Notes: generated by a model from the sequence alone, not told the origin. 64,000 nt of DNA from an uncultured delta proteobacterium (GCA_963840855.1 CAWJBB010000087.1:1-64000); one strand, 5' to 3'; shown: positions 4,505-50,234, numbered from the stretch's first letter. Made by a program: numbers and translations.

Positions 4505-4516
4505 AGGTCGCAGAAC

Positions 4517-5311: not shown

Positions 5312-5368
5312 TCACAGTTTTTCCGATCTCCTTTTGGTGCAAAATTCCAAATACTTTTGGTTAGCTCT

Positions 5369-7329: not shown

Positions 7330-8309
7330 GAATGTGGTCCTTTTGCGGAGACAACCGGATGGGTCAATGCGCCGATGGCAGAGGATGCGCAACGAATCGT
7401 CGAGCCGACTTTAAGCGGCACCGGGATTTGCAGCCGGTCTCCTTGTAGCGCCATGCTGGCGCCAATTGCGAGAAAGTCGCCGGGCTTGATGCCGAGGATC
7501 GACCAACGGGCGATGATTTGCTCGACGGTGAACACGCATTCACGTAGCGAAAATTTTTGTTTGACGGCGCCGTCGAGCGAGAGATCGACTTCTAAAGATT
7601 CGAGAGTTGTCCTGGACTCTTCCATCAGCACGCCGGGGCCAATGCAGGTGCTCGAGGGAAAATTCTTGCCGAGCAAATTGTTCGTGGTTGCGCCTTCCCG
7701 CTTGTTGATGTCACGCGCGGTGATGTCGATTAACAGCGTCACGCCCGCTACATGGCTCCATGCTTGTTCGGGCGAGATTCTCTTGCCGGCCTTGCCGATG
7801 ACAATGGCGAGGCACGCATCGGCGTCGACTTCCGCGGAGAATTTCGGCCAAACGATGGGCGTGCCGGTTGTGACGAAAGTCTGCGGCAGTTTGTAGAAGG
7901 CCGTCGGAATTTCGGCCTCCGGCCTGGCTTCGATGCGCGCTTTGTCGGAAAAGCCCATGACAAAACTTTTTTCCGGATTCAGCAGCGGCGGCAGCAAGCG
8001 AATTTCGCGCGGTTCGTAGATAACTTTCTCGCCCGAAGGGCCATGCAGGTCGCCCGCGTCTCGTTGACGCAAAAACGCAGCCGCATGATCCATTGCTTTT
8101 CGCGCTGCGTCACCGCGTTCCAAGAATCTTTGGATGCTGTCCGGAAAACAAAATGCGGCGAGCTCGTACGCATGAGCCGCGCTTGCCTGGGACTCGCACA
8201 GTTGCGCGGCGTGTGCCAGCTGCAAATCGATCAGCCGGTTGTCGCATTCACCAAAAATACGAGTTTGCCCGGGCGCTGAGCTTTCCGTAAGACCCAGGTA
8301 GAGTTTCAC
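7326..8309 (-). CDS. FAH family paralog with degenerate metal site
   Basis: FYKLP, DADACLAIVIGK, DITARD, GKNFP motifs. Confidence 0.8.
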   Translation of the reverse strand: MKLYLGLTESSAPGQTRIFGECDNRLIDLQLAHAAQLCESQASAAHAYELAAFCFPDSIQRFLERGDAARKAMDHAAAFLRQRDAGDLHGPSGEKVIYEPREIRLLPPLLNPEKSFVMGFSDKARIEARPEAEIPTAFYKLPQTFVTTGTPIVWPKFSAEVDADACLAIVIGKAGKRISPEQAWSHVAGVTLLIDITARDINKREGATTNNLLGKNFPSSTCIGPGVLMEESRTTLESLEVDLSLDGAVKQKFSLRECVFTVEQIIARWSILGIKPGDFLAIGASMALQGDRLQIPVPLKVGSTIRCASSAIGALTHPVVSAKGPHS

Positions 8310-10071: not shown

Positions 10072-11655
10072 CTACATGCGCCCATCCTGCAAAATTTCCA
10101 ACGCCGCCAATCTGCCCGAAGCGGCCATGACGCCGCCGCCGGGATGGGTGCATGAGCCGCACATGTAGAGATTTTTGATCGGTGTTCGATATTTCGCCCA
10201 ACCCGGAACCGGGCGCAGGAAAAAGAGCTGGTCCAACGTCAATTCGCCTTGAAAAATATTACCTTCGGTGAGACCAAACTCCTGCTCCAAATCCCACGGC
10301 GTGACCACTTGCCGGTAGAGAATGATGTCTTTCAAGTTGCGCGCGTATTCGCTCAGCGTGTCGATGACGGCATCGCCGAAGGCTTCCCGTTTTTCCGGCC
10401 AGGTACCCTCTCGCAGATGATAGGGCGCGTACTGCACGAAGATCGACATGACATGTTTTCCCGGCGGCGCCATGCCGGGGTCGAGCATCGATGGCAGGAT
10501 GATGTCCATGTAGGGCCGGCGCGAGAAGTCACCGTACTTGGCGTCGTCATAAGCTTGCTCAATGTAATCGAGGCTCGGGCTGATGGAGATCGCGCCGGCC
10601 AAATGCGGGCCTTCTCCCGGCCACGACGTAAAATTCGGCAGGGCATCGAGAGCGAGATTCACTTTGGCCGACGAACCACGAATCTTGAAATTATTCACTT
10701 GGCGCAGAAACTCGGCGTCGAGATGTTGGGAATCGACCATTTTTAGGAAGGTCCGTTTAGGATCGACGCCAGAGACAATTACCTTGGCGTGATATTCTTC
10801 GCCGCCGCTTACCACGCCGTAGGCGCGGCCGTTTTTGACCAGCACCCGGTCCACCGCCGCCGCGGTCCTGATTTCGGCGCCATGATGGCGCGCGGCATCG
10901 GCGATGACCCGGCTTATGGCGCCCATGCCGCCGCGGGCAAAACCCCAGGAGCGAAAGGCGCCGTCGAGCTCGCCCATGTAGTGATGCAAGAGCACGTAAG
11001 CCGTTCCAGGCGAGCGCGGCCCCATGAAAGTGCCGATGATGCCGCTGGCGGACATGGTGGCCTTGAGCACGTCCGTCTCAAACCATTCGTCGAGAAAATC
11101 CGCCGAGCTCATGGTCATGAGCTTGGCAAGATCATAAAGCAGTTTTTCTTCGAGACCGCGGAAATGTTTACCTACTCCGGCGAGCCCCAAAAGCTCTCGC
11201 GGGTTCCAGGAGGTGGGATCGGGAGGAATCAAGCCGAGCATCGGCTTGACCGCCATCGCCATCTGGACCATGACCTTGCCGTATTCTTCATAGGCTTCGG
11301 CGTCGGTCGGCGAATGGCGCGCGATTTCGCGCCGGGTCCGCGCGTGATCGCCGCAGCGGAACAGATAATCGCCGTCGGGCATCGGCGTAAACGTGCTGTC
11401 GAGCGGGATGATCTCGAGATCGTAATTCGGCAGCTCCAACTCGCGGATCACTTCCGGGCGAAGCAGGCTCACGACATACGAACAGACGGAAAATTTGAAT
11501 CCAGGATAGATTTCTTCGGTCACCGCGGCGCCGCCGAGGACATGGCGCCGCTCCAGGACGAGGACTTTTTTCCCGGCTTTGGCGAGATACGCAGCTGTGG
11601 TGAGGCCATTGTGGCCGCCGCCGATGATGATCGCATCGTAGTTGGACATGGCCAT
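10072..11655 (-). CDS. COG1233 (phytoene dehydrogenase-like) NAD(P)/FAD oxidoreductase, paralog
   Basis: IIGGGHNGL; GNIFQGELTLDQLFFLRP; NLYMCGSCTHPGGGV. Confidence 0.88.
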   Translation of the reverse strand: MAMSNYDAIIIGGGHNGLTTAAYLAKAGKKVLVLERRHVLGGAAVTEEIYPGFKFSVCSYVVSLLRPEVIRELELPNYDLEIIPLDSTFTPMPDGDYLFRCGDHARTRREIARHSPTDAEAYEEYGKVMVQMAMAVKPMLGLIPPDPTSWNPRELLGLAGVGKHFRGLEEKLLYDLAKLMTMSSADFLDEWFETDVLKATMSASGIIGTFMGPRSPGTAYVLLHHYMGELDGAFRSWGFARGGMGAISRVIADAARHHGAEIRTAAAVDRVLVKNGRAYGVVSGGEEYHAKVIVSGVDPKRTFLKMVDSQHLDAEFLRQVNNFKIRGSSAKVNLALDALPNFTSWPGEGPHLAGAISISPSLDYIEQAYDDAKYGDFSRRPYMDIILPSMLDPGMAPPGKHVMSIFVQYAPYHLREGTWPEKREAFGDAVIDTLSEYARNLKDIILYRQVVTPWDLEQEFGLTEGNIFQGELTLDQLFFLRPVPGWAKYRTPIKNLYMCGSCTHPGGGVMAASGRLAALEILQDGRM

Positions 11656-11714: not shown

Positions 11715-11784
11715 ATTTTAGATTTTCGATTGCCGATTTTGGATTGAATCCAAAATCTAGAATCCAAAATCTAAAATCGAAAAT
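11715..11784. repeat. Heptamer (ATTTTGG/CCAAAAT) inverted tandem repeat
   Basis: ATTTTAG ATTTTCG ATTGCCG ATTTTGG ATTG followed by AATCCAA AATCTAG AATCCAA AATCTAA AATCGAA. Confidence 0.8.
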
Positions 11785-11789
11785 TGCGA

Positions 11790-13001
11790 ATGCCCATCGG
11801 AACCGCTTTTCACTCCCGAACATCGGCGCTGTGCGCGAGCCAGAATTGGCGCGTGTGGTCCGGCTACTTCGTCGCCAGTTCCTATGAGACCGTGCACGAC
11901 TATGAGTATCACGCCATCCGCAATACCGCGGCGCTCATCGATATATCGCCGCTTCATAAATATGACGTTCGCGGCAAGGACGCGGCAAGGCTGGTCAATC
12001 GCGTAATCACCCGCGACGCCACCAAGTGCGCGGTGGGCCAAGCGCTCTATGCGTGCCTGTGCGACGGCGCGGGCAAGGTGATTCAGGACGGTACGGCGTT
12101 CAGGCTCGCCGAAGATCATTTTCGCTTTCATCTCGCCGATCCGGGCTTGCGCTGGCTAAAACTCAATGCGGTAGGAATGAATGTGCAGATTCAGGAATGT
12201 TCGGAAGCGGTTGCCGCACTTGCTTTGCAGGGGCCTAACGCGCTCAATATTCTGCAGCGGGCCGCAGACAAAGACTTGAGCGGGCTTAAATTTTTTCGGC
12301 TCACCAACGCTAAAATCAACGGGATTCCGGTGCTTGTATCGCGCACGGGTTACACTGGTGATCTGGGCTACGAGGTGTGGCTCAGCTGCGACCAGGCGGA
12401 GAGTATCTGGGATACTCTGGTGGCGGCGGGTAAAAACTACGGCATCAAGCCGGCCGGCATGCTCGCCCTGGACGTGGCGCGCCTCGAAGCCGGGTTTATT
12501 TTGCTGGAAGTCGACTACATCGGCGCAGACAAAGCGGTGATTCCGTCGCAAAGATATTCGCCTTACGAAATCAGTCTCGGCTGGACGGTGGATTTGAAAA
12601 AAGACCATTTCGTCGGACACCAGGCGCTCAGGGAAGAAAGCCGGCGCGGTCCGGTCCGGCAAATTGTTGGGCTGGAGATCGACCTTCAGGCCTACGAGAA
12701 CCTTTTTCAAAAGGCCGGGCTGGCGCCGCATATCCCGTTGACGGCCTGGCGCGGCGGAGTACCGGTTTATCGGGACGGCAAGCAAGTGGGGCAGGCCACC
12801 ACCGGTGGCTGGTCTCCGGCTCTGAAGAAGTACGTCGCGCTCGCCACCTTGCACAGCGGCAACACCGCGATCGGTTCCCGAGTGGACATTGAAGTGACGG
12901 TAGAACACCAGCGCAAGACCGTCGACGCAAAGGTCGCTAAGCTGCCGTTTTTCGACCCGCCGCGCAAACGGGCGGTGTTCGAGAAAGCAGAGAGAATTTA
13001 A
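11790..13001 (+). CDS. GcvT-family folate-binding aminomethyltransferase/demethylase
   Basis: DISPLHK, ALQGP, SRTGYTGDLGYE, ALDVARLEAG, LPFFDP motifs. Confidence 0.88.
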   Translation: MPIGTAFHSRTSALCASQNWRVWSGYFVASSYETVHDYEYHAIRNTAALIDISPLHKYDVRGKDAARLVNRVITRDATKCAVGQALYACLCDGAGKVIQDGTAFRLAEDHFRFHLADPGLRWLKLNAVGMNVQIQECSEAVAALALQGPNALNILQRAADKDLSGLKFFRLTNAKINGIPVLVSRTGYTGDLGYEVWLSCDQAESIWDTLVAAGKNYGIKPAGMLALDVARLEAGFILLEVDYIGADKAVIPSQRYSPYEISLGWTVDLKKDHFVGHQALREESRRGPVRQIVGLEIDLQAYENLFQKAGLAPHIPLTAWRGGVPVYRDGKQVGQATTGGWSPALKKYVALATLHSGNTAIGSRVDIEVTVEHQRKTVDAKVAKLPFFDPPRKRAVFEKAERI

Positions 13002-17673: not shown

Positions 17674-18132
17674 TTAGAACCCTTCTTCTTCGATATCACC
17701 CACCACTAAGCGGCGGTAGCCGCGCTCGTCTTCGACGTTCTTCTGCCGCTTGCTTTCTTTCTCGTTTTCTTCCTGGCAGCGGACGCATAGCCGCGTGAAC
17801 GGCAGGATTTTTAAACGCCCCAGTTGGATTTCTCCCTCGCAGGACTCGCAGATGCCGTAGGTTTTTTCCTTGATGCGTTGGAGCGCCTCGTCGATGGCCA
17901 ACAGCTTTTCGCGTTCGCGGTCGTTCAAAATAAAATTGATCTCACGATCGCGCTCGTCGCTGGCCAAATCATAGGTATCCCGGCCCTCGTCTTTGACACC
18001 TTCGGTCTCCACCTTGACGTGGTCCTGCATTTCTTTCATCGCCTGCCGCTTCATATCTTCAAGCATCTCGGCGGCTTGCTTAAGAAACTCCCTGCGCTGT
18101 TTTTTTTCTTTTTCGGTATCTTTTTTAGACAT
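17674..18132 (-). CDS. dksA: TraR/DksA C4-zinc-finger transcription factor
   Basis: DTYDLA coiled-coil tip; YGICESC...RLCVRC. Confidence 0.8.
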   Translation of the reverse strand: MSKKDTEKEKKQRREFLKQAAEMLEDMKRQAMKEMQDHVKVETEGVKDEGRDTYDLASDERDREINFILNDREREKLLAIDEALQRIKEKTYGICESCEGEIQLGRLKILPFTRLCVRCQEENEKESKRQKNVEDERGYRRLVVGDIEEEGF

Positions 18133-19490
18133 GGGCTATCTCACCGATCAGGTCGTATTCTAAGGCTTGGATAATTCTAACCTCGGCCATCGTTCCAGGC
18201 AATGGGGCATTATTTCCATTAGTATCGGCGCCGGTTATGTAAACGACACCGTCGACTTCCGGCGCATGCGCCTGGGTTCGCCCGTGGAGCTGTTGGGTTT
18301 CGGCGTCAGCGCCGCACATCATAACGCGCTGTACCGTTCCAATCAAGCCTATGTTCTTTTTTCTTGAAATTTCGGCCTGGAGCTCCATGACTTCCTGCCA
18401 GCGCCTTTCGATTTCCTCGGCGGGAAGCTTAATTTCTAGCTTGGCGGCCGCCGTACCCTCCTCATCCGAATACTTGAAGACGCCGAGCCGCTCGAAGCGG
18501 GTTTCTTCAACAAATTCCAAAAGTTCCTGAAAATTCGCATCGGTTTCGCCGGGAAAGCCGACGATCAACGAGGTCCTGAGCGTCAGTCCGGGTATGGCCG
18601 CACGCAGTTTTTGCACACTCTCCCTTACGGCGCTGCCGCTCTTGCCGCGGCGCATGCGCTGCAATATGGCGCGACTCACATGCTGAAAGGGGATGTCCAA
18701 GTAGCTGCAGATCTTGTCGCTATCACGGATGAGCTTCAAAAGCGCATCGTCAAGGTAATTGGGGTAGGCATATAGCAATCTGATCCACGCAATGTCCCGG
18801 ACCTGATCGAGGTCCCGCAGCAAGCCGTAGAGCGTCGTGCCATCCTTGCGGTCACGACCGTAGGCGCTGAGATCCTGGGCTATGAGGTTGATTTCCTTGA
18901 CACCGCCTTGGGCCAAAAGTTCGGCTTCTTTAATTACCGAATCGATAGAGCGGCTTCGGTGTGGACCGCGCAGCTGCGGGATGATGCAAAAAGCGCACTT
19001 ATGGTCGCAGCCCTCTGAGACTTTGAGATACGCGACTATAAGAAGGCGTCGTACGCAGGCGCGGCGTTACATGGTCGTATAGATAGGAGGGCAGGCCGAC
19101 GAACTGCCGGCGGCTGTGGTCGGCTTCATGGCGGCGCAGAATCTCGGCGATGCGTGGCACTTCGCCGGTGCCGATAAAGAAGTCTACTTCCGGCAGCTCT
19201 TTGGCGAGTTCGTCCGAGTAGCGCTGTGACAAGCACCCCGCGACTATGAGTTTTTTAACTTTGCCTTCTTCTTTCAACCGGCCAATTTCCAGGATGGTAT
19301 CGACGGATTCAGCCTTCGCGGCATCGATGAAACCGCAGGTATTGACCAGCACGATGTCCGCGCCGTCGGGCTCTTCCACGAGGTCAAAGTTGTCTTGCCT
19401 GAGCAGTCCGGCCATGACTTCAGAGTCGACCAGATTGCGGGCACAGCCGAGGCTGACGATGCTGAGTTTTTGTTTGCTGGAGTAGTTCAC
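18125..19490 (-). CDS. rimO: Ribosomal protein S12 methylthiotransferase RimO (apparent frameshift near 19035)
   Basis: SLGCARNLVDSE, NTCGFI, GCL; CDHKCAFC radical SAM motif after the shift; APEVDG TRAM region. Confidence 0.92.
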
Positions 19491-28002: not shown

Positions 28003-29226
28003 CTATTGGCCCTGCGCTATCGCAAGGTCGTGCGGCCTCATCCCTAGCCTTTGGCCGCCGTTACCTGTGACCACTACCGTATCGCCCCAGGTGCAGATCG
28101 AGTTTCCGTCGGCCGACCGCGCCGAAGGTTTGAAGATAAAAACCATGTTCTCAGAGAGCGTTACTGCGAGTTGGCTCGGGTTGCGCGCATTGGAGGTGAT
28201 AATCGGGCCGTCGTCTCCGGCCCCGCGGCCGTGCATGGTAAGCTGAGCCGTAGCGCCGGCGGCTGGCCCCGATTGTGGAGCTACTCGCTCCGCCGTAGTT
28301 CTCGTAAGCTCGGCCAGCTCTTTGACACTGACCCCTGGCTTGAGATTCTCCATCAGCCGGTTGAAAACTTCTCTCTGTACCTTGATCAGCTCTTGGTGTA
28401 CGGGATCGGCAACTTGCACAAAAACCGGTTGAACACCCTGGGCCCGATAACCGATCCAGGAGGCCTCGACCTCGTTGATAATGAGATCGCCGCGTTCCAG
28501 GATGCGCATGCTCGGCCGGGTGAGAGTGCGCTTGGGATTTTTTCCCGAGACCCAGTTGCAGTGCACCGGTAACTCCGAGCCGTTGCGCAGTAGAGCGGAT
28601 TGAGTCTCGGCCCAAACGTCCCAGTCTTTCACCCCGGGCTGTGCCGCCTTGATCTCCGCCTGGTACGCGAGCTCGACAATCTCCATGGAGCGGGTAAGGA
28701 CGCCAATCTCTTCCTGGCTTTTCACGTAGCGTACTTCAGCCAGAATCGCGGTGGCATCCACTAATTCGGCCTGCGGAAATTCTTCGCGGATTTTCTTCCA
28801 CGTGCCGTAAAGAATCGTGCCTTCGGGCGTGCGCGTTCCCTCCACTTCGCCCAGACCGGTAACACCGATGCGCCCGCGATCGACGTTCAGCTCCTTCAAC
28901 CGCTCCACGATCACGCGTCCGTAATTTCGCCGCGCCTCGCGCAGGTCCGTGGTCCATTCCTGTACGGTTGGCCAGCGCGCCTGAGCCGTCGTGGCGATGG
29001 CGGTGACTTCCGCTTCTAAAGGAAACACCGCCGCGACGTCAGCATCTCCGCCTCCGCCGCAGTGGGTGAGATAGCGCGTGTTTGCCTGGAAGTCGGTGGA
29101 GTGGCCGGTGTTGTTGGGGGTGACGATGACATCGATTCGGTGTTGCCGCATCAGATCGCGCACCGCTTTCCAGCGGCGGTCTCTTTCAGCCAAAGAAAAA
29201 CGCGGATACGGGTAATGTTCAGCCAT
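28003..29226 (-). CDS. M24/creatinase-like pita-bread fold protein
   Basis: FSLAERDRRW, RYLT, VKSQEEI, HGRG, MVFIFKP, GDTVVVT. Confidence 0.8.
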   Translation of the reverse strand: MAEHYPYPRFSLAERDRRWKAVRDLMRQHRIDVIVTPNNTGHSTDFQANTRYLTHCGGGGDADVAAVFPLEAEVTAIATTAQARWPTVQEWTTDLREARRNYGRVIVERLKELNVDRGRIGVTGLGEVEGTRTPEGTILYGTWKKIREEFPQAELVDATAILAEVRYVKSQEEIGVLTRSMEIVELAYQAEIKAAQPGVKDWDVWAETQSALLRNGSELPVHCNWVSGKNPKRTLTRPSMRILERGDLIINEVEASWIGYRAQGVQPVFVQVADPVHQELIKVQREVFNRLMENLKPGVSVKELAELTRTTAERVAPQSGPAAGATAQLTMHGRGAGDDGPIITSNARNPSQLAVTLSENMVFIFKPSARSADGNSICTWGDTVVVTGNGGQRLGMRPHDLAIAQGQ

Positions 29227-29313
29227 GAGAACCTCCCTCAATAAATTGAGGATAGAATCGAGGATTGAGATCAAGCCGGGAATTGAGAATCGATGCCTGC
29301 GGTCCTCAAGTGA

Positions 29314-30246
29314 TTATTCTCGATCATTGATCTTCCACGTCGCTCCCCCTTCACGCGGAACGCAGAGCTCCAAGAAATTTGCTCCCGGATCTCTAACGTA
29401 AACAGACGCTGCGATGGGCGATGATATAGGGTGTTCAACCGGTCCATGAACCAGAAAGCGCCGCTCTTTGAGGAGCTTCAGAGCTTCATCCAATCTGCTG
29501 CGGCTTACCCGCAGTCCGATTCTGGGCGCGCCGACAATTTGCTCTTCAGGCGGCTCCTGGCGGTGCTGAGTGGCCAGATAAATTCCCAGGACGCCATCGC
29601 CCACCCGCAAAAAGAAATGGGTGTTGGGTCTGGGGATACGGCGCTTTTGCTCCATCACCGTGTAACGCTGGTCCCAGCGTCTTGTGCCCGGCGCCATATC
29701 CTCTTTTCCTTCGCCCCAAAGCTGCCCGCGGACATAATCCGCGGTGCGCCAACCGACCCTGTGCTCCACGGCAAGGCCGAGGACTTTTACGTAAAAATCT
29801 TCCGCCCACTCGAGGTCGTGACACTCCACGGCAGCATGATCGATACCCAAAACTTTACCGCTCGCATTGGAATCAGCGCCGGAAACTACCAACTGGACGC
29901 GATTGCCATCAAAATCATAAAAATAAAAATTGTCCCGTTCTTCTGCGGGCCGATCCTCTTTGTAGGTGTGAACAGCGATTTGGCGCGACGCCAAGTTTCT
30001 GGCGATAGCCTCGCGATGCCGAGGCGCCACACGGTAGGCTTGATGGACGCCGGTTTCGGGCAGCGATCGAGGCTCTGCGCTTTGAGAAAGGATCAGCGAT
30101 TGACCGGATGCGCCGCGGAGCGGAACGCTCGCGCCGCAGTCAGCCGCGCCGCCGTCCATGAGGTCAAAGCCCAGGATTTCGCGATAGAACTCCTCGGCTC
30201 TTTTCAAGTCCGAGACCTCAATGACAACGTGGCTGATGCCTTCCAT
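29314..30246 (-). CDS. Two-domain VOC protein
   Basis: SHVVIEVSDL...FYFYDFDGNRVQL; DHAAVECHDL...YVRDPGANFLEL. Confidence 0.85.
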   Translation of the reverse strand: MEGISHVVIEVSDLKRAEEFYREILGFDLMDGGAADCGASVPLRGASGQSLILSQSAEPRSLPETGVHQAYRVAPRHREAIARNLASRQIAVHTYKEDRPAEERDNFYFYDFDGNRVQLVVSGADSNASGKVLGIDHAAVECHDLEWAEDFYVKVLGLAVEHRVGWRTADYVRGQLWGEGKEDMAPGTRRWDQRYTVMEQKRRIPRPNTHFFLRVGDGVLGIYLATQHRQEPPEEQIVGAPRIGLRVSRSRLDEALKLLKERRFLVHGPVEHPISSPIAASVYVRDPGANFLELCVPREGGATWKINDRE

Positions 30247-30321
30247 GTGCCTGTCTCGCATAGGGCTGAAGGCTTATGGCATATAGTATGGAACAATACG
30301 CTATACGCCCTAAGCTAGAGT

Positions 30322-30789
30322 TCATCCCACGCCGGTGATGTATGGCTTGACGTAATTCACATCTTCGTCGCGCCGCCAGAGAATCTCGAGGAAATTTCCG
30401 CTCGGGTCCTTGAAATAAATCGATTGGCCGAACGGGCTCTTCTCGGGATGTTCCACCGGGCCTTCAAAGCCAATCTCCCGGCGCTTTAGCTCGTTCACGA
30501 TTTCGTTAAAGCGGCTGCGTGAGACGCGAAAGGCATGGCGAAAACCATGCGCGCCGCGATGTTGCTCTTCAGGCGGCATCGGCATGAAATTCCGCGGCAC
30601 CATCAAGGCCAGGAGATAATCCTCTAAAATGACCGAACCGTGCACGGACCTTCCTCGAATAGCATCGTCGGTCTTGAAATTAACGCGCCCGCCGAGACGC
30701 GCCCCTAACACATCGCAATAGAATTCCTCCGCCTCTCTTAAGTCGTGCACGCAGATGGCGCTGTGACTCAGGCTCTCAACATCCGCCAT
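30322..30789 (-). CDS. Single-domain VOC protein
   Basis: SHSAICVHDL...RHAFRV...SIYFKDPSGNFLEI. Confidence 0.85.
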   Translation of the reverse strand: MADVESLSHSAICVHDLREAEEFYCDVLGARLGGRVNFKTDDAIRGRSVHGSVILEDYLLALMVPRNFMPMPPEEQHRGAHGFRHAFRVSRSRFNEIVNELKRREIGFEGPVEHPEKSPFGQSIYFKDPSGNFLEILWRRDEDVNYVKPYITGVG

Positions 30790-30833
30790 GGTTTTCTCCT
30801 CCGTTTTATCTTGTGTCGTGGTCTCTCACGAGA

Positions 30834-31643
30834 CTAAACGCGCTCGACGTCGGCGGCACAGAACTCCGCCCCGCAGGCGGGCGGAACGACCTGGTCGGGA
30901 TTGTAGCTTTTCCGGACGAGAATCTCCGAGCTGTCTACGATGACAATGCCGTCCTCGGAGATCGTCACCGGATGCATTCTCAGCGGGCCGACGTTTTGCT
31001 GATGTCCAGTGAATTCGCCTCTGCGGTTGTAGGTGGCGCTGTGCAGCGGGCAGTAAAATCGCCAGTGCTCTTTTTCCCAATTCACCTGGCCGTTTCTGTG
31101 AGTGCACCAACGCGAAAGGGCCATAAAGCCTTCTTCCACACGCAGCAGAAAAAACATCCCCTTGCTGAACGGCGTCACGGACCCGATTGCGAAATCTTCA
31201 ATCCTCCCGCAGAGCACTTTGCCGGCGCTCGGCCTGATAATTTTGGTCGCCTCGGGACCATGGGCCTGAACCTGGTAACGGTGGCCGTCCGGATCGTAGA
31301 CGTCCAGGCTCCTTTCACCCAAAGCGCGGAACTCCTCCCGGCTGTCCTCAATGTTGTATCCCGACGCCTTTAGTCTTTCCTGAGCGCGCTTATACTGCTC
31401 TACCGTTAAAAGCCAAGCATGGTGAATGCTGTTGCTGTTGGGGCGAAAAGGCTCGACTTTTGAAACTTGGACCAACAGGACCATCTGTCCCGTATTCATC
31501 TTGAGAAGCGAGTTGGAACCCTCTTCGTTCACCAGACCTCTCCCCACTAGATCGAGCCCCAGCACTTCCTGGTAGAACTTTTCCGAGCGATCCAAGTCGG
31601 TTACCTGGACAACAAGATGACTGAAGCCATCAACGAGTGCCAT
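30834..31643 (-). CDS. VOC-Rieske [2Fe-2S] fusion protein
   Basis: N-terminal SHLVVQVTDL...HHAW...YDPDGHRYQV; C-terminal CTHRN...CPLHSATY Rieske ligands. Confidence 0.85.
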   Translation of the reverse strand: MALVDGFSHLVVQVTDLDRSEKFYQEVLGLDLVGRGLVNEEGSNSLLKMNTGQMVLLVQVSKVEPFRPNSNSIHHAWLLTVEQYKRAQERLKASGYNIEDSREEFRALGERSLDVYDPDGHRYQVQAHGPEATKIIRPSAGKVLCGRIEDFAIGSVTPFSKGMFFLLRVEEGFMALSRWCTHRNGQVNWEKEHWRFYCPLHSATYNRRGEFTGHQQNVGPLRMHPVTISEDGIVIVDSSEILVRKSYNPDQVVPPACGAEFCAADVERV

Positions 31644-31888
31644 CGCTCTTCTCCATTCATGTTGCAGCTTTTATGTTCCTGTTGCCGAAGATGAGTATCA
31701 TGACGTTGGTGCAAATCCGTTGCATGGACGTTATCCAAGTCATTGGTCGTTTTCAATAGCATAAGATTAGTGTTGGTGGCCTTACGCCTTGTTTACGGAT
31801 CCGCTTTGTGTTGACCTGACATATTGCGGTCGGATAATGTCATACACTCATTGCTGTTTTACTTCTCAGTTCGTACAAGGCGAGGCAT

Positions 31889-33022
31889 ATGGTGATCAGG
31901 TTTTGCGGACGATATTTCATAGGCATTTCCATGCTGATTCTTCTGGCCGCCAGAATTGGCGCGGCGGCTGATGTCCGATCGCCGGCTTCTCAAGAATGGG
32001 ATACGATTGTGAAAAAAGCCGAGGAGGAAGGGCAGGTCACTGTCTATGCGACCGACTCGATCGGTAACGCGCAGATGATCTGGGCGGCTTTTCAAAAGCG
32101 CTACCCGAAAATCAAGCTTATCGGCACCACTATGGGACGCGGAAGCGATTTGTTCCCGAAGCTCTATGGCGAACGGAGAGCCGGCAAATTTCTTGCGGAT
32201 GTATTCCTCGGCGCGCCGTCGGCGGTCTATCTCAATCTTTATCGGGCAAAAATCATCGAGCCGATTCCTCCGATGCTGGTCCATCCTGGTGTGATCGACG
32301 TGTCAAAATGGTGGATGGGAAGGCACCATTATATCGATGCCGAGGGTCAGTACATTTTTATGTACGAGAGCGCTGTTTACGGCCCGCCGCTTTACTTCAA
32401 CACCAACCTCGTCAATGAGAAAGAGATTAAATCGGCGTGGGACCTGGTCCAACCCCGATGGAAGGGAAAGTATCAGGCCCTCCAGATAGGTCCGACCCAG
32501 GGCTCGACTGCGCTGACCTATGTGTATCATCATCCTCAGCTCGGGCCGAAATTCGTCGAACGTATCTACCGGGATATGGAGCCTACGCTGTTCCGCGACA
32601 TCCGCCAGGGCACAGACTGGTTATCACAGGGGAAGTTTGCTCTCTGCTTTTTGTGTAGAAGGATCGACCGGGCTGCTATGCAAGGCCTGCCGGTTGCCGA
32701 ACTCAACCCTTACCAGATCGAAGAGCGGCCGGGGATTGGTTCCGGCTCCGGCGCGCTGGTATTGATGAACCAGCATCCTCACCCCAACGGCGCAAAAGTT
32801 TTCATCAACTGGTATCTTTCATTGGAAGGGCAAATCGCGTTCCGGCAAGCCAATACCGACGAGCTGAGGGTCACCTCGCTCAGGGAAGATTTGCCGCCGG
32901 AAATTGTGCCGCCCACAGCGGTCAGGAGGAAAGATAAGGACTACCTTCTGATCAACCGTTCGGAGTGGATGGACTTTACGCCGATCCAAAAACTGCTCGA
33001 AGACATACGCAAAAGCAAGTAG
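31889..33022 (+). CDS. ABC SBP, paralog family copy 1
   Basis: Signal peptide; ERRAGKFLADV; WKGK; LCFLC; HPHPNGAKVFINW. Confidence 0.88.
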   Translation: MVIRFCGRYFIGISMLILLAARIGAAADVRSPASQEWDTIVKKAEEEGQVTVYATDSIGNAQMIWAAFQKRYPKIKLIGTTMGRGSDLFPKLYGERRAGKFLADVFLGAPSAVYLNLYRAKIIEPIPPMLVHPGVIDVSKWWMGRHHYIDAEGQYIFMYESAVYGPPLYFNTNLVNEKEIKSAWDLVQPRWKGKYQALQIGPTQGSTALTYVYHHPQLGPKFVERIYRDMEPTLFRDIRQGTDWLSQGKFALCFLCRRIDRAAMQGLPVAELNPYQIEERPGIGSGSGALVLMNQHPHPNGAKVFINWYLSLEGQIAFRQANTDELRVTSLREDLPPEIVPPTAVRRKDKDYLLINRSEWMDFTPIQKLLEDIRKSK

Positions 33023-43696: not shown

Positions 43697-43757
43697 GTTC
43701 AAGGTTCAAAGTTTAAGGTTCAAGGGCAGAACCGAGTTAAAGCATTGAACGTTGAGC
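43697..43757. repeat. Heptamer GTTCAA/TTGAAC inverted repeat
   Basis: GTTCAAG GTTCAAA GTTTAAG GTTCAAG ... TTGAACG TTGAGC. Confidence 0.7.
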
Positions 43758-43768
43758 GTTCATTTCCA

Positions 43769-45496
43769 ATGTGGAAAGGGAGGCTGTCGAGCGGCTCGAT
43801 TTTCTTTTTCATCTTCGTCGTCGGAATTCTTCTCTGGCTCATTCTGATTCCCCTGGGGCAGATGGTGATCAGCAGCTTTCGCTCCGGTCATCCCGCCGCG
43901 CCCGGACCGTTCACCTTTAGCAATTATCTCGTTGCTTACACGAACCCTCTGACCTATCGGATGATTCTCAACACGTTGGTTTTTGCCGGCGGAGGCACGG
44001 CGATTACGGTTTTCATCGCTGTGTTTTTCACCTGGCTGCTCGAGCGCACCGATATGCCGCTGCGCAATTTGTGCTGGACCTTGCTGCTTATCCCGTTGGC
44101 GATGCCCGGACTGCTCTTCTCCATGTCCTACGTGCTTCTTTTTATGCCCAAGAGCGGCATCATCAATGTTTTCATCCGTGATCTCTTCGGCAGCTTCGGC
44201 GTGGAGCTTTCTGAAGGACCGATTAACATCTATTCCCTCGGCGGGATGATCTTCCTCGACGGGATGCGCGGCGTGACGACGGTATTTCTTCTTATCACCG
44301 GCGCTTTTCGCATGATGGATCCCGGTCTTGAGGAAGCCTCATTCGCGGCGGGAGCAAAAAATTGGACCACGGTCCGGCGAGTCACCCTGCCGGTCTTGCG
44401 GCCGGCGCTCCTCGCCGCCGTCTTGTATGAGTTCACCTCTTCGATGGAATCCTTCGAAGCTCCTCTGGTCGTCGGCCTTCCCGGCCGCGTCTTTGTTTAC
44501 AGCACGATGATCTATATCTCCACTCGCGACGCGATTCCCAACTACGGCTTGGGCGCGGCCTTTGCCGGAAGCTATTTTCTGATGGCGCTCGTGCTGGTCT
44601 ATTTTTACCAGCGCGCCACTCTATGGCAGGCCGAGCGCTTTGCCACCGTGACCGGCAAGGGATTTCGGCCTCACACCCTGGCATTGGGCCGTTGGCGCTA
44701 CCCGGCTCTCGGTCTCTTCGTGCTCTATTTTATTTTGGCTGTCGCTCTTCCTCTAGGCGTGCTGATCTGGACCTCGCTCCTGCCGGTTTATCAGCCGCCA
44801 TCGATGAAGGTACTCTCCGAATTGTCCTGGACTCACTATCACGGGATACTTTCCGGCCCGCTGATTCTGCGTGCGATGTGGAACACCGTGATCATCACTC
44901 TGTTCGCGGCCACGGCAACAGTGCTCCTGGCGTTCGCCGTCTCCTGGTTGGTGGTTCGAACTAAGGTCAAGGGACGATATGCTCTGGACAGCCTTTTGTT
45001 CGCCTCCCACGCCGTGCCTGGAATCGTCGTGGCCCTCTCTTTTATTTTTCTTTATCTCGAGCCGCCGTTTCGCTCCCTCGGCCTTTACGGCACGGTGTGG
45101 ATCGTCTCCCTCGCGCTGATTACGCAGTACATTGCGTTTGCGTCTAGAACCACCAACGCCGCGATCACCCAAATTCACAAGGAGTTGGAAGAAGCAGGGG
45201 AAGTTAGCGGCGCGAGCCCGCTGCGGGTCGCTTGGCAAATCACCTTTCCACTCATCCGCCCCGCCTTTATCGCCGCCTGGCTGTGGGTGGCGGCGCACGC
45301 CGTGAGGGCGTTCTCTGTGCCCTTGATGCTCGCCAGCAGAGACAGCTGGCCTTTGTCGGTCATGCTCTGGCATCTTTGGGACGAAGAGCAAAATCTGCCG
45401 GCAGCCGCCGCCTTGGGAGTGGTATTGATCCTGGTGCTGACGGGTTTGACTTTGCTTGCGCGGGTTGTGGTCGCCAAAGGATTCGAGCAAACGTAG
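43769..45496 (+). CDS. FbpB-type ABC permease (two TM domains)
   Basis: Two EEA loops (MDPGLEEASFAAGA; HKELEEAGEVSGA); ERTDMP; TVTGKG. Confidence 0.9.
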   Translation: MWKGRLSSGSIFFFIFVVGILLWLILIPLGQMVISSFRSGHPAAPGPFTFSNYLVAYTNPLTYRMILNTLVFAGGGTAITVFIAVFFTWLLERTDMPLRNLCWTLLLIPLAMPGLLFSMSYVLLFMPKSGIINVFIRDLFGSFGVELSEGPINIYSLGGMIFLDGMRGVTTVFLLITGAFRMMDPGLEEASFAAGAKNWTTVRRVTLPVLRPALLAAVLYEFTSSMESFEAPLVVGLPGRVFVYSTMIYISTRDAIPNYGLGAAFAGSYFLMALVLVYFYQRATLWQAERFATVTGKGFRPHTLALGRWRYPALGLFVLYFILAVALPLGVLIWTSLLPVYQPPSMKVLSELSWTHYHGILSGPLILRAMWNTVIITLFAATATVLLAFAVSWLVVRTKVKGRYALDSLLFASHAVPGIVVALSFIFLYLEPPFRSLGLYGTVWIVSLALITQYIAFASRTTNAAITQIHKELEEAGEVSGASPLRVAWQITFPLIRPAFIAAWLWVAAHAVRAFSVPLMLASRDSWPLSVMLWHLWDEEQNLPAAAALGVVLILVLTGLTLLARVVVAKGFEQT

Positions 45497-45741: not shown

Positions 45742-46747
45742 ATGAAGAAAAAAATCACGGGCCTTACTCTTTGCGCCATGCTCTATGCGCTTTGCTTGTC
45801 TGTCGACGCGCAGCAGCCGAAGAAGGTCCCACGGATAGGGTATCTATCGTCGGCCGACCCAGCTAGTGAGTCCACCCGTTCCGAGCCATTTCGGCTGGCT
45901 CTGCGCGAGCTTGGTCACATAGAAGGACAGAACATGGCCATCGAGTACCGATATGCGGAGGGGAAGAACGATCGGCTCCCTGAGCTTGCGGCTGAGCTGG
46001 TGCGTCTCAAGGTTGATATCATCGTAACAGGAGGGGTCCCGCTGGTCCGGGCGGCCAAGAATGCGACCAAAACAATTCCCATCGTTATGTTGGGCCAAGG
46101 GGCCGATCCTGTCGAGGCAGGCTTAGTTGATAGCCTTGCCCGTCCCGGCGGCAACGTCACCGGCCTTACAAACCTTGGCAGAGAACTAGGCGGTAAACGG
46201 CTGGAGCTGCTCAAGGAAGCCGTTCCCAAAGTTGCCGGTGTCGCGGTTCTCTACGAGCCGGCCGTCCGGGCAGTGTACGCGAGGTGAAAGAGATTCTCCC
46301 AGTCGCGGCGCGCGCGCTGCGGTTGACTATTCGGTCTTGGGAGGTACGAGCTGTGGACGATTTCGACAGGGTATTCGCTGCGCTAAACAAGCAGCGCCCG
46401 GATGGACTCTACGTGCTGCCCGGCGGGGGCCCGCTAATGTTTGCTAACGCAAAACGGATCGCGGGCTTTGCCGTTAAAGAGCCGGTTACCGTCGGTGTAC
46501 AGCATCAGAGAATCTGTAGATGCCGGCGGGCTCATGTACTACGGAGCGGATCTCGCAGACAACTACCGGCGCGCCGCCTATTATGTGGACAGAATCCTCA
46601 AGGGAGCCAAGCCTGCCGACCTGCCGGTGGAGCAGCCGAAGAAGTTCGAGCTAGTGATCAACCTCAAGACGGCGAAACAGATCGGCCTGACGATTCCGCC
46701 GAATGATGTAGCGGGCGGATAGGGTGATCAAAGAGGCGCCGGGATAA
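45742..46747 (+). pseudogene. COG2984-type ABC substrate-binding protein with several frameshifts
   Basis: KVPRIGYL...SLARPGGNVTG...KRLELLKE; GGLMYYG...KPADLPVEQP...INLKTAK; terminal RADRVIKEAPG* spread over several frames. Confidence 0.8.
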
Positions 46748-46752
46748 ACGGC

Positions 46753-48647
46753 ATGGAGTAGCGGATGAGAGAGCCGCACAAGAAAGGAGTAGCGCACCAT
46801 TTTGGCTCCGAGTCATGCGTCTGGGTCCGCAAGGACGCGGGCGAAGCGTTGACAGGGGTACACACAGGCCAGGTATGGAGCTCCGAAATCACCACTTCGG
46901 TGTGCCGACCTTGTTTTGATATGGGGAAGGCAACATGAAGGGCAGCGATAGGCGCGAGCGGTCCTTCGACACCGCGGAGTCAGAGACCCTAGGCATGTGG
47001 GGAAACTCCATGCGCGAGAACCGGGAGGCCCTGCAGACGCCCACACTGGATGGCAGTGCGGGACGGTCGAAGAAGGCCAAAAGCCGTAATTTCGACATGC
47101 ACGTTTGTGGGGAGTCGGACGGCCTCGTAGTACCAACGAAGCGGGCGAACAAAGCCGACGCGTATGCGTTGGTAGCGGAGTCCGCAGAGGAAAGGAGGTC
47201 GACCAAGGGGAACGCACCACAAGCGCACTCGCGCCGGACCCAGAGCCGGGGATGCGAGTCACAGGGTTTGTGGCGCGTACGACAAGCGGCAAGAAGGGAT
47301 AGGCGGATACGGTTTACCGCCCTGCTTCATCACGTGACGCCACAGTTGCTCAGGGCGAGCTATTGGGAATTGAATCGTTTAGCTGCGCCAGGCATTGATG
47401 GTGAGACGTGGAAGGACTACCGCGTGCAGATGGAGGTCCGAATCTTAACCTTCACGAGCGGGTGAACGCGGGACCTATCGGGCTAAGCCGTCCAAGCGCG
47501 CATGGATTCTGAAAGCGGTGGACAACGACTCCTGGGGATCGCGGCGCTGGAGGACAAGATCGTCCAGCAGGCTGTGCGGCGGGTGCTCGAAGAAATCTTC
47601 GAGGTAGAGTTCCTAGGTTTGAGCTACGGATTTCGGCCTGGGCGCAGTGCGCACGACGGCTTGGACGCGCTATGGGTGGGCTTGATGGGGCGGCGGATAA
47701 ACTGGGTGCTCGATTGTGACATTCGTGGATTCTTTAACCCATCGTGCACGAGTGGCTGATGAAGTTTATCGAGCATCGAGTGGGGGATCGTCGGGTACTG
47801 CGCCTGATACGGAAATGGCTTCGGGCGGGAGTATCTGAAGAGGGCGAGTGGTCCAAGACGGTAGTGGGAACACCGCAGGGATCTTTGATTTCACCGTTTC
47901 TAGCGAATTGTACCTGCACTACGTGTTGGATTTGTGGGTGACACACTGGCGCAAGCACCATGCGCAGGGTGACGTTATCGTGGTGCGTTACGCGGACGAT
48001 TTCGTCATGGGTTTCCAACATCGGTTGGAGGCTGAGCGCTGCCTACAGGAGTTTAGAGAGCGAGTTGGGAAGTTCGGCTTGGAATTGCACCCAGAGAAGA
48101 CCCGGCTGATTGAGTTCGACTCTTTGCGGCCGTGCGTAAATCGGAAACGGGACTGGGCAAACCGGAGACGTTCTCGTTTTTGGGCTTCACGCATTACTGC
48201 GGGGAGACTCGGAAGGGAGCGTTTACGATCAAGCGGCAGTCCATGGCCAAGCGCATGCGCGCGAAGCTATTGGAGATCAAAGCGCAGCTCAAGAGGCACC
48301 TGCACAGTACGGTGGCCGAAATGGGCGCGTGGCTGCGATCAGTGGTTCGGGGATGGCTTAACTATCATGCGGTACCTGGAAACAGTGCTAGTCTGGGCAG
48401 GTTCCGCAACGAGGTGGGCCGCATCTGGTTTGGCGTTTTGCGGCGGCGCAGTCAGAAATTTCGTCGCAGACGTTGGCAATACATGGCACGGCTGATTCGC
48501 TACTGGCTCCCTCCCGCGCGGATAGTGCATCCATATCCCAACGAGCGGCTGGTCGTCACATGAACCCGAGGTAAGAGCCGTATGAGGGAATTCTTCACGT
48601 ACGGATCCGTGCGGGGGGCCGCTCGCAAGGGCGGTCCCTACCGCGAC
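46753..48647 (+). mobile_element. Group II intron, apparently 5'-truncated
   Basis: Domain I-like CGAAGCGTTGACAGGGG; domain V GAGCCGTATGAGGGAATTCTTCACGTACGGATC (48575-48607); domain VI ending CCCTACCGCGAC; no GTGCG 5' end found. Confidence 0.85.
47097..48563 (+). pseudogene. Group II intron reverse transcriptase/maturase, multiply frameshifted
   Basis: FTALLHH, APGIDG, LEDKIVQ, SYGFRPGRS, DIRGFF, GTPQG, RYADDF, FLGFTH, GWLNYH in different frames; no endonuclease domain. Confidence 0.88.
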
Positions 48648-48794
48648 TGATGAAGAAGGCATGAGGCGCGAGGCAAGAGGCAATAGTATGAGAAGGAAGA
48701 ATGCCAGATAACGATTTTGGATGGGCAGAAATATTCTGGCGGATTTTAAAGGACATGCGAGAAAAATTCTGATAATTGCGATGGAGATTTATAA

Positions 48795-50234
48795 ATGGCA
48801 ACAAATTCATCGTTAGCCTACAAAGACTTGCGTGAGTATATTGATGCCGTGGATCAAGCTCGGGCGAGCTGCGCCGCGTCGACGGCGCCGATTGGGATTT
48901 AGAACTTGGTGCGATCACCGAGGTGGCGGCGCGGGCGGCGAATCCGAAGGTCGTTCTCTTCGATCACATCAAGGGATATCCCAAAGGGTTTCGCGTCGTG
49001 ACCAATCCCGTCTGCTCGGCTGCGACGACCGCTCTGGCATTCGGTCTCGATCCGAAACTCACCGGCCTCGACATCATTCGCGCGTGGAAGGAAAAGCTCG
49101 GCAGCCAGAAGCCGATCAAGCCCGTCGAAGTTTCGGATGGTCCGATCACGGAAAACGTTGAAAGCGGCGACAAGGTCGACTTGCTGAAGTTCCCGACGCC
49201 GCGCTGGCACGAGGAAGACGGCGGGCGGTATATCGGCACGGGCTGCATGGTGATCATGGAAGACCCGGACGGCAAGTGGACCAACGTCGGCACCTACCGG
49301 GTTTGCGTGCATGATAAAGACACGCTGGGGATCTGGATTTCGCCTGGCAAACATGGGCGGCTGATTCGAGAAAAGTATTGGGCGCAAGGTAAACCTTGTC
49401 CGGTGGTGATCAGCTTCGGCCAAGATCCGATTCTCGCCAAAGTGGCCAGCTGGTATGAGCCCTGGGGCGTTTCCGAGTTGGAGATCGCCGGTTGGCTCTT
49501 CGGCGAGCCGGTCAAAGTGATTCGCGGCGAGCTAACGGGCTTGCCGATTCCCGCGACATCAGAGTTGGCGGTCGAAGGACTTATCGTTCCTCCTAGCGAG
49601 GACAGTCGCGCGGAAGGTCCGTTCGGCGAGTGGACGGGCTATTATGCTTCCGGCACACGCAACGAGCCGGTGGTGAAGGTCAAGAATGTTTTCTATCGCA
49701 AAGATCCGATAATTTTAGGCATGCCGCCGGGGATCTCCGGCAAATCGGTGCCGTTGAGCGCCGCGAATGTCTGGTTGCGCTGGAAAAAGCGGGCGTGACT
49801 GACGTGCAAGGCGTGTGGGAGTACGTGACTCGATATATCACGGTGATCTCGATCAAGCAGAAATACGGCGGCCACGTAAAGCGCGCGGCGATGGCGATGC
49901 TCGGTTCGACTTACGGTTATCACCGCCGATTCGTTATCATCGTCGATGACGACGTCGATCCTTCAAACATCGACGATGTCCTGTGGGCGTTGGCGACGCG
50001 TTGCGACCCGGCGACGGCGATCAATGTCATTACCGAAGCCTGGAGCACGCCGCTCGACCCGCGCATTGCGCCGGATGCGCGGGCAGCGCGCAACTTCACG
50101 AATTCAGTCGCGGTTATTAACGCTTGCCAGCCGTATCATTGGAAGGATCAGTACGCGAAGACCTGCTACTTCCCGGAAGAAACGCGGCAAGCAAGACGTA
50201 TGCGAAGTGGAAGGATGTATTAAGATTGGAGTGA
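48795..50234 (+). CDS. UbiD-family (prFMN) decarboxylase, at least three apparent frameshifts
   Basis: YKDLREYI...GELRRVDGADWDLELGAI; GRYIGT; NVGTYR; EGPFGEWTGYY; VDDDVDP...WALATRCDP. Confidence 0.85.

Follow-up and report, generated by a model that had tools for sequence, protein, structure and literature searches.

The operon and its distribution

The DNA analysed here is a stretch of 64,000 nucleotides (nt) from an uncultured delta proteobacterium (GCA_963840855.1, CAWJBB010000087.1:1-64000), the whole of which we call the window. On its minus strand, at 28003-31643, an open reading frame (ORF) listing of the 64-kb window shows four co-oriented, closely packed ORFs. They encode a fusion of a VOC domain to a Rieske [2Fe-2S] domain, a one-domain VOC protein (VOC1), a two-domain VOC protein (VOC2x) and a creatinase-like protein of the M24 family. 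This is the gene content that an original prediction, made before the present analysis, had proposed (a VOC-Rieske fusion, two VOC proteins and a creatinase-like protein, all co-oriented), and the ORFs and their Pfam matches confirm it. The features are listed below with lengths in amino acids (aa); VOC domains with a His-His-Gln ligand set are called Q-type and those with His-His-Glu E-type.

30834..31643, minus strand: VOC-Rieske fusion gene, 269 aa; PF00903 and PF00355, both over cut-off
31272..31625, minus strand: Q-type VOC domain of the fusion, residues 7-124 (Pfam span); His9, His74, Gln124
30882..31217, minus strand: Rieske [2Fe-2S] domain of the fusion, residues ~143-254; ligands C180, H182, C198, H201
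30322..30789, minus strand: VOC1, one-domain E-type VOC protein, 155 aa; His9, His85, Glu135, His114, Tyr125, Asp57
29314..30261, minus strand: VOC2x, two-domain VOC protein, 315 aa; Q-type N-domain, E-type C-domain with an insert of ~31 residues
28003..29226, minus strand: M24 protein, creatinase/ectoine-hydrolase-like, without metal ligands, 407 aa; the ORF extends to 29274 (423 aa)
31644..31888, no strand: divergent intergenic region (245 nt) between the operon and a solute-binding protein (SBP) gene; by its position, the probable promoter region
31889..33022, plus strand: FbpA/AfuA-like SBP gene, divergent from the operon; weak Pfam SBP matches

Both domains of the fusion score above the Pfam cut-offs (PF00903 Glyoxalase, 51.3 bits against 20.6, residues 7-124; PF00355 Rieske, 27.2 bits against 20.3, residues 164-214), as do VOC1 (PF00903, 38.4 bits against 20.6), VOC2x (PF00903, 53.6 bits in two stretches against 20.6) and the M24 protein (PF00557 Peptidase_M24, 67 bits, and PF01321 Creatinase_N, 30.3 bits, both over the curated cut-offs). 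The intergenic gaps within the unit are 44, 60 and 39-87 nt, and motifs resembling ribosome-binding sites (GGAG, GGAGG or GGGAGG) stand ahead of three starts, those of the fusion and of VOC1 and an internal ATG of the M24 gene at 29226. Because a GGGAGG motif precedes this ATG and M24 homologues begin to align only at residue 14-17 of the 423-aa ORF, 29226 is most likely the M24 start; VOC2x homologues start at Met6 (30246). The unit comprises exactly four genes, since it is bounded upstream by the divergent region and the SBP gene and downstream by a convergent GFO/IDH/MocA oxidoreductase gene that ends at 27910, and a single operon is the best explanation for this arrangement. A promoter and terminator scan returned no more than shuffled sequences did (3 vs 2.3; 5 vs 5.0), and at this shuffle level the sole sigma-70-like match within 31644-31888 lies on the plus strand. 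Short contigs from RNA libraries, 90-100% alike, match all four genes (four metatranscriptome runs from three studies), and one of them spans the M24/VOC2x junction (29186-29353); as DNA may be present in such libraries and depth cannot rank the genes, we take them as a weak hint of operon expression.

The fusion has many relatives. A word-indexed search gave 274 among 859 candidates, and 113 of the 120 that were listed carry both PF00903 and PF00355 at a size of ~260-290 aa; the same architecture makes up three unnamed clusters of a protein atlas (97, 51 and 50 members). The search for Glyoxalase-Rieske architectures that the original prediction had proposed thus turns up a recurrent arrangement. 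The names given to the listed relatives are generic only ("VOC family protein", "Rieske Fe-S protein"). When representatives at 50% identity were searched exhaustively, 517 matches came at E <=1e-3 and just 11 at 1e-30, so that the family appears compact. Longer fused forms were absent among 1580 candidates, which is weak evidence; the representative library includes a distantly related protein, P0125 (418 aa), in which an extra E-type VOC domain lies ahead of the Q-type VOC and Rieske domains in a single chain.

Full-length fusions were collected from 17 genome loci, in metagenome-assembled genomes (MAGs) labelled Binatia, "Deltaproteobacteria", Alphaproteobacteria, Chloroflexota and, once, Thermoleophilaceae, and from 79 metagenome loci, that is, 96 loci from independent assemblies. 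Among 41 relatives, the window's genome included, five have the fusion and 36 lack it, and the four other genomes of its genus are all without it; a phylum sample of 201 genomes, of limited weight with just five of the same class, gave one match, the window's own. This patchy distribution looks like that of an accessory module that moved between phyla. Its carriers are soil and sediment bacteria, most of them uncultured, from three or more phyla.

That the fusion might be an assembly artefact, a doubt raised with the original prediction, or a gene in decay is hardly credible in view of the number of homologues, most of the listed ones carrying both domains at ~265 aa, of the independent assemblies and atlas clusters in which they occur, of the invariant Rieske ligands described below and of the RNA-library contigs that match all four genes. 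The one observation in its favour comes from a second copy of the whole module (L016, 8001-8772), located on the same MAG contig as locus L017: its fusion gene matches the window's fusion as two overlapping pieces and may be frameshifted.

The module is also conserved as a unit. VOC1 follows the fusion in 57 of the 58 metagenome loci with at least 550 nt downstream and VOC2x in 43 of the 44 with at least 1500 nt; the genome loci with sufficient downstream sequence give 16 of 16 and 15 of 15. A gene for an M24 protein (at least 40% identity) comes after the module in 19 of the 25 metagenome loci with at least 2900 nt downstream, two of the six misses (L092 and L105) having a more distant M24 gene, and all 14 genome loci with sufficient sequence have an M24 homologue, either next to the module, divergently oriented upstream of it or no more than ~5 kb away. 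Strong VOC1 matches are confined, among the 41 relatives, to the same five genomes as the fusion. The neighbourhood comparison suggested earlier therefore shows a fusion that travels with both other VOC genes and usually with the creatinase-like gene. More variable genes lie around it: in the 16 metagenome loci where the fusion is flanked by at least 3 kb on either side, FbpA-type binding proteins were found in nine, bicupins in seven and Rieske oxygenase alpha subunits in three, while single or few loci have fused double permeases, LysR regulators, UbiD, or binding proteins of the peptide or NMT1 type. At L112 a flavin (FAD) aromatic-ring hydroxylase and an FAA hydrolase stand beside the module, and orthologues of the window's divergent SBP (67-92% identity) adjoin the fusion in L001, L004, L005 and L008.

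A full-text literature search (supplementary files lay outside its scope) returned no paper on a VOC-Rieske protein or operon, and the PDB, NCBIfam and the protein atlas gave no characterised name for the fusion; no NCBIfam model reaches its cut-off for the operon proteins, which have no close solved structure. The earlier remark that no characterised protein has this architecture stands after these searches. Judged from their sequences, the operon proteins would not be members of any characterised family, although they combine known kinds of VOC metalloenzyme and of Rieske carrier.

Proposed composite metal sites, Rieske domain and M24 protein

The four VOC domains of the operon are two old paralogous pairs, one Q-type and one E-type. 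Profile comparison by hhalign pairs VOC1 with the C-domain of VOC2x (probability 99.7, E 3e-27) and the VOC domain of the fusion with the VOC2x N-domain (probability 99.5, E 1e-22), and a tree of 59 domain sequences splits the Q-type domains (fusion and VOC2x-N) from the E-type domains (VOC1 and VOC2x-C) at 100/100. A branch of this tree separates each of the four domain groups from all other sequences, so the four domains were already distinct before the module spread. The best PDB matches of the VOC parts, at ~1e-5 to 1e-7, are Fos proteins and structural-genomics entries; glyoxalase I, FosA/FosB/FosX and methylmalonyl-CoA epimerase are the best sequence matches of the operon VOC domains. 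Q-type domains have a His on strand 1, a His on strand 5 and, on strand 8, a Gln where other VOC proteins have Glu. By alignment, H9/H74/Q124 of the fusion and H9/H85/E135 of VOC1 fall at the metal-ligand places of FosB (the same is seen for a paralogue) and are predicted ligands, in keeping with the His, His and Gln first proposed for the fusion. They are almost perfectly conserved: the fusion residues are kept in 90/91, 96/96 and 96/96 loci and those of VOC1 in 82/82, 78/78 and 77/77, and three further VOC1 residues, H114, Y125 and D57, are kept in 76/77, 77/77 and 80/80.

How these residues may be grouped into sites is suggested by a co-fold of the fusion with VOC1, each chain supplied with its alignment. 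The median score was 0.87, against 0.00 for the best of three controls with unrelated proteins; the mark set for such predictions is reached by 58 of 80 solved complexes and by 2 of 110 mismatched pairs. At least 78% of the contacts are common to the runs, and the partner has a predicted local distance difference test (pLDDT) value of at least 79. In the model, fusion residues 6-13 (with H9) contact VOC1 residues 83-88 (with H85) and 135-137 (with E135), and VOC1 residues 1-13 (with H9) contact fusion residues 72-80 (with H74), 121, 126 and 128 (around Q124). The model supports, and does not show, a glyoxalase-I-like fusion/VOC1 heterodimer. In glyoxalase I and FosA each metal site is formed by the strand-1 His of one chain and the other ligands of the partner. 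The predicted interface likewise sets strand 1 against strands 5 and 8 of the partner, as in one-domain VOC dimers; unlike those homodimers, the pair would be a heterodimer of old paralogues, with Gln in place of the last Glu in one site and a Rieske domain appended. We infer two composite metal sites, each built from both chains: an E site made of fusion His9 with VOC1 His85 and Glu135, with VOC1 His114 and Tyr125 behind it, and a Q site made of VOC1 His9 (perhaps with Asp57) and fusion His74 and Gln124.

VOC2x offers an argument that is independent of the model. If the same sharing rule holds between its two domains, its Q site would consist of H142 (C-domain) with H73 and Q123 (N-domain), and its E site of H11, position 248 and E298. 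Conservation fits this rule: the Q trio reads His-His-Gln wherever all three places are covered and the E trio decays, with H11 kept in 47/65 loci and E298 in 57/63, and with Gly, Tyr or Phe, and Ala or Gln, at the decayed places in divergent VOC2x lineages. True VOC2x genes have no His at position 248, the second ligand place of the C-domain; from the pattern of matches, we read five apparent "His" cases as short contigs on which the query matched a VOC1 gene. VOC2x also evolves faster than its partners: in a comparison over one set of 39 loci, the median identity with the window's own proteins is 68% for the VOC domain of the fusion, 66% for VOC1 and 69% for the M24 protein, and 47% and 55% for the N- and C-domains of VOC2x. 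Within the family, a complete 2-His-1-Glu site with a Tyr and a His behind it appears to occur only in the fusion/VOC1 pair, the one that bears the Rieske domain. The composite-site rule assigns each histidine to a site and explains which ligands decay and which never do. The idea of a heteromeric VOC enzyme, put forward in the original prediction, gains support both from the co-fold and from a conservation pattern that fits only metal sites shared between domains.

The Rieske half of the fusion, joined to the VOC domain by a linker of ~15 residues, has the intact CTH...CPLH ligands that had been noted before. C180, H182, C198 and H201 are kept in 93/93, 93/93, 93/93 and 92/92 of the loci (of 96), contrary to the possibility that homologues might lack them, and such constancy in all loci examined, from three or more phyla, favours a functional cluster. 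Small soluble Rieske proteins (9rk4, 9rk3) and PetC are nearest to this half, the best PDB match being 9rk4 (E 9.5e-9, residues 144-239), and the 15-residue spacing between His182 and Cys198 is one that we take to be typical of bc1/b6f and soluble respiratory Rieske proteins. High-potential Rieske proteins carry a second cysteine in each ligand loop, and the two form a disulfide. The fusion's loops (CTHRNG and CPLHSA; family consensus CTHMNG and CPMHGA) lack these second cysteines, which speaks against the high-potential type, and no signal peptide or membrane anchor is evident in the fusion sequence; unlike respiratory-type Rieske domains, this one is cytoplasmic, has no disulfide cysteine pair and follows an enzyme domain. 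Other cysteines were observed outside the loops. The linker residue Cys145 is kept in 94/95 loci, and the C-terminal tail (residues ~252-269; 30834-30890) contains two cysteines (CGAEFCAA) that are kept in Binatia-type homologues and absent from alphaproteobacterial and Chloroflexota ones.

The M24 protein has lost all five carboxylate or His ligands that hold the dinuclear metal centre in M24 metallopeptidases such as prolidase, aminopeptidase P and MetAP. Aligned with prolidase (1pv9/1wy2), it reads E252, Q263, A336, K366 and G381 at the five ligand places. In 13 orthologues the replacements are conserved as such. The 10 paralogues of the same genome that were aligned all agree with the protein at places 252 (E), 263 (Q) and 381 (G), and His is absent from place 336 in each of them; K366 is kept in nine, the paralogue on contig C33 reading Q. 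Among NCBIfam models, ectoine_DoeA_2 matches best, along the whole protein (79.9 bits against a cut-off of 575, E 1.4e-22); matches to the creatinase structures 1chm and 7yto reach only E 1e-10 to 1e-11. Like creatinase and the ectoine hydrolases DoeA/EutD, the protein thus joins Creatinase_N to a pita-bread fold in which the dinuclear ligands are replaced; it is distinguished from DoeA and creatinase by the low model score, by an invariant residue set of its own (H42, H55, H222, C223, H332, D338, D339, K366 and H399) and by belonging to an expanded family. Ectoine catabolism was considered and dropped, since no EutB-, EutE- or EutA-like partners are found among the neighbours.

This M24 family is far wider than the VOC-Rieske module. 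It is present in 19 of the 41 relatives (a tally that includes G209 and G215, two genomes flagged as unpublished), often in several copies, and the window's genome has 18 ORFs of the family. Four of the five closest copies in that genome lie within 3 kb of a two-domain VOC gene, in which the domain order is reversed, E-type then Q-type, and only the shared Q site is complete. Two of these paralogous cassettes carry further partners. One on contig C12 (L037, 2387-8973) holds a binding protein, a VOC protein, an M24 protein, a CoxS-like [2Fe-2S] subunit and the large subunit of a molybdopterin hydroxylase; in one on contig C2 (L036, 1538-11065), M24, VOC and ornithine-cyclodeaminase-like genes are present twice each, one of the M24 copies being 75% identical to that of the operon. 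Molybdenum hydroxylases and ornithine-cyclodeaminase-like proteins act, in known systems, on N-heterocycles and cyclic imino acids. The lead towards a substrate class, N-containing cyclic compounds, comes from these partners and thus from the paralogous cassettes, not from the operon itself.

Proposed function and alternatives

We tentatively favour, with a little less than even confidence, the view that the fusion and VOC1 form a heteromeric, redox-coupled VOC oxygenase into which an electron shuttle is built. This proposal is based on four observations: (i), the cluster ligands are invariant across phyla; (ii), the only complete 2-His-1-Glu site lies in the Rieske-bearing pair, and VOC1 aligns, weakly, with XylE; (iii), a VOC enzyme that needs O2, a metal and a reductant has been described (TxDE, below); and (iv), the module is placed like a ring-cleavage enzyme in several loci. 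The electron transfer, O2 use and substrate class that we infer would run as follows. The E site would be of the 2-His-1-carboxylate type that activates O2 in extradiol dioxygenases, and the Rieske domain would pass single electrons to its metal, a supply that may either keep this metal ferrous or drive an oxygenase-type turnover. VOC2x, a fused paralogue with both domains in a single chain (Q-E), has retained the Q site alone and would probably be a second, non-redox catalytic subunit or a scaffold. The M24 protein would be a metal-free pita-bread hydrolase that cuts a C-N bond before or after the VOC step. The substrate of the system would be a small solute, perhaps a nitrogen-containing cyclic or aromatic one, brought in by an ABC transporter of the FbpA type.

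The nearest mechanistic parallel is offered by the type I extradiol dioxygenases (BphC, XylE, HPCD), which share the VOC fold and the 2-His-1-Glu set and also pair a ligand-poor domain with a ligand-rich one. VOC1 has a Tyr ten residues before its Glu and a His before that, a set that may match theirs. Residues 113-138 of VOC1 align to XylE (1mpy) 245-268 at E 0.027 and residues 5-39 to BphC (1han) 141-175, both weak matches, and the NCBIfam catechol_2_3 model matches residues 121-137, also weakly. Y125 and H114 fall within the stretch aligned to XylE and may correspond to the second-sphere residues Tyr255 and His246 of that enzyme. The H9/H85/E135 triad of VOC1 is invariant, and in the co-fold the strand-1 His of the site comes from the fusion. 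The operon pair differs in that the two "domains" are separate chains, each site being drawn from both in the model, and in having a second, His-His-Gln site. The ferredoxin XylT, a [2Fe-2S] protein, keeps the iron of catechol 2,3-dioxygenase ferrous; unlike this free, plant-type ferredoxin, the module here is of the Rieske type and covalently fused, and the fusion has no PF00111 match. Rieske non-haem iron oxygenases (NdoB, VanA, LigXa) likewise join a Rieske cluster to a mononuclear 2-His-1-carboxylate site, but their alpha subunits have a catalytic fold (PF00848, PF19112 or PF19301) that is not VOC and is not found in the fusion, and their oxygenase-type Rieske domain is N-terminal, whereas that of the fusion is C-terminal and nearest to the bc1/b6f type. 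TxDE (TflA), a toxoflavin-degrading VOC enzyme, is reported to need O2, Mn(II) and a reductant (PMC3143149). One His and two Glu bind Mn(II) in this enzyme, which consists of a single polypeptide without a fused redox domain and is supplied in vitro with a small molecule as reductant; its profiles match VOC1 weakly (3oul, E 0.004; 3pkv, E 0.003).

Several observations weigh against the oxygenase proposal. The catalytic His of extradiol dioxygenases (His195/199/200) lies ~15 residues before the second His ligand; VOC1 has no equivalent, with Pro70 there and no invariant His in residues 10-84. Extradiol NCBIfam models (HpaD, catechol_2_3, 23dbph12diox, HsaC) reach 21-40 bits against cut-offs of 320-450, and the nearest PDB and NCBIfam sequences are Fos-type thiol transferases and glyoxalases, not oxygenases. 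The Rieske domain resembles respiratory bc1/b6f-type proteins (9rk4; PetC models), which usually accept electrons rather than donate them. The distant relative P0125 keeps its Rieske domain without a complete metal triad in either predicted site, and at locus L096 the fusion stands alone, with neither VOC1 nor VOC2x. The neighbourhood of the module lacks a conserved electron donor, reductase or other; a Pyr_redox_2/Fer4_20 gene occurs at L092 only. As to the model, no Rieske residue is named in the interface, so nothing places the cluster near either metal site; the co-fold pass may reflect mere likeness, since VOC homodimers are many among solved structures, and either chain might also form homodimers, since the controls were unrelated proteins.

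Some of these points would suit VOC sites that work as non-redox Lewis acids (in an isomerase, epimerase, lyase, thiol transferase or hydrolase), the Rieske domain being a redox or iron sensor or a structural add-on. The nearest PDB and NCBIfam relatives, Fos proteins, glyoxalase I and methylmalonyl-CoA epimerase, are of this kind; the universal site of the family is His-His-Gln, complete even in paralogues that lack the Rieske domain; with Asp57 of VOC1 the Q site may have four ligands, as in glyoxalase I; and no electron donor is conserved nearby. We nevertheless consider this reading unlikely, because it does not account for cluster ligands kept in all 92-93 loci with data from at least three phyla, nor for the restriction of the complete 2-His-1-Glu site, with its Tyr and His, to the Rieske-bearing pair, and a sensor would leave the strict 1:1 fusion within an enzyme operon unexplained. 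Fosfomycin resistance was dropped as a candidate function, the Fos NCBIfam models scoring 22-49 bits, far under their cut-offs of 170-305. Electrons might instead flow outward, the VOC site oxidising the substrate and the Rieske domain handing the electrons to a soluble or respiratory acceptor, much as the Rieske subunit of arsenite oxidase accepts electrons and passes them on. The closeness of the domain to bc1/b6f-type and small soluble respiratory-type proteins, its 15-residue spacing and the want of a conserved reductase gene nearby all fit; but the disulfide cysteines of high-potential clusters are absent, as are an evident signal peptide or membrane anchor, no cytochrome or cupredoxin acceptor is conserved near the module, and we know of no VOC-fold dehydrogenase. 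We regard this direction of flow as slightly less likely still.

Very improbable, in our view, is the other role named in the original prediction, that of a Rieske-type ferredoxin serving the four Rieske oxygenase alpha subunits nearby. The window does contain four alpha-like genes (25449, 35572, 57289 and 61119) and, as had been observed, no ferredoxin or ferredoxin reductase was found among those 50 of its ORFs of at least 150 aa that were scanned with Pfam; the whole contig has no Fer2 (PF00111) match either, and at L017 a Rieske oxygenase gene directly follows the M24 gene. Conservation nonetheless gives the idea no support. Alpha genes lie near the fusion in only three of the 16 metagenome loci that could be compared, and in two genome loci of 17 (L001 and L017), as against the near-constant presence of VOC1; the window's genome has 55 Rieske-domain matches, ~45 of them of alpha size, and one fusion; 36 of the 41 relatives do without it; and gene order, together with the co-fold for VOC1, ties it to VOC1 and VOC2x instead.

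Within the favoured proposal of a redox-coupled VOC oxygenase, it is tempting to speculate further that the operon encodes a new class of Rieske-dependent oxygenase, in which a mononuclear, O2-activating 2-His-1-Glu iron at a composite interface between two VOC chains would receive electrons through the fused Rieske domain and oxygenate an N-cyclic substrate, the His-His-Gln site would carry out a non-redox follow-up step that rearranges or cleaves it, and the metal-free M24 protein would open the product. We hold this full scheme to be doubtful.

Genomic surroundings and wider meaning

The operon is surrounded by other genes of apparent catabolic use. Between 1422 and 61099 the window has at least 16 FbpA/AfuA-like SBP genes (for example at 1422, 31889, 34249, 36790, 39378, 40707, 42636, 50402, 51882, 52955, 55891 and 59960), with one fused double permease (43745-45496) and no ATPase seen among the scanned window ORFs; these binding proteins look like orphan receptors that share one transporter. 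The SBP encoded next to the operon (31889-33022) has its best PDB match in 6hhb, an Fe3+-type SBP (E 3.8e-8). An attempt to derive the substrate from the binding protein was given up, since the nearest solved relatives, Fe3+-type SBPs at E 1e-6 to 1e-8, are too far to name a ligand. A second catabolic cluster on the minus strand (3338-8309) encodes an acyl-CoA-dehydrogenase-like flavoprotein, an isochorismatase-family hydrolase, a two-domain VOC protein (5369-6241) and two proteins of the FAA hydrolase family. Next to it, on the same strand, are two amine-oxidase-like flavoproteins (8392-9975 and 10072-11655), followed on the plus strand by a GcvT-like aminomethyltransferase (11784-13001). At the level of the genome, 27 Fer2 matches accompany the many Rieske-domain proteins, and the oxygenase repertoire is unusually large for 7.1 Mb.

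Parts of the window are interrupted. In a decayed stretch at 45742-50223, an ABC_sub_bind ORF is truncated (45742-46287), a reverse transcriptase is present as a fragment (47848-48495) and UbiD is divided between two overlapping ORFs (48923-49798 and 49630-50223); a frameshift, or what is left of a mobile intron, may account for this. A MiaB/RimO-like methylthiotransferase (18125-19490) appears to be in two pieces, a UPF0004 ORF (18999-19490) and a Radical_SAM+TRAM ORF (18125-18916), through either a frameshift or a sequencing error.

The catabolic islands in which the module lies have many solute-binding proteins, so that it is a probable marker of a hitherto unrecognised pathway for a common environmental compound. 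The M24 family without metal ligands, with its many members in this one genome, represents an unexplored group of hydrolases. The VOC fold and the Rieske cluster are each textbook parts, but a studied enzyme that combines the two did not turn up in our searches. Iron sites of the extradiol type are known to lose activity by oxidation. If the cluster feeds the VOC metal site, the fusion would be a natural answer to this inactivation and a second, independent scaffold for Rieske-driven oxygen chemistry. A fixed VOC-Rieske fusion may thus mark a new way of building oxygen-using enzymes.

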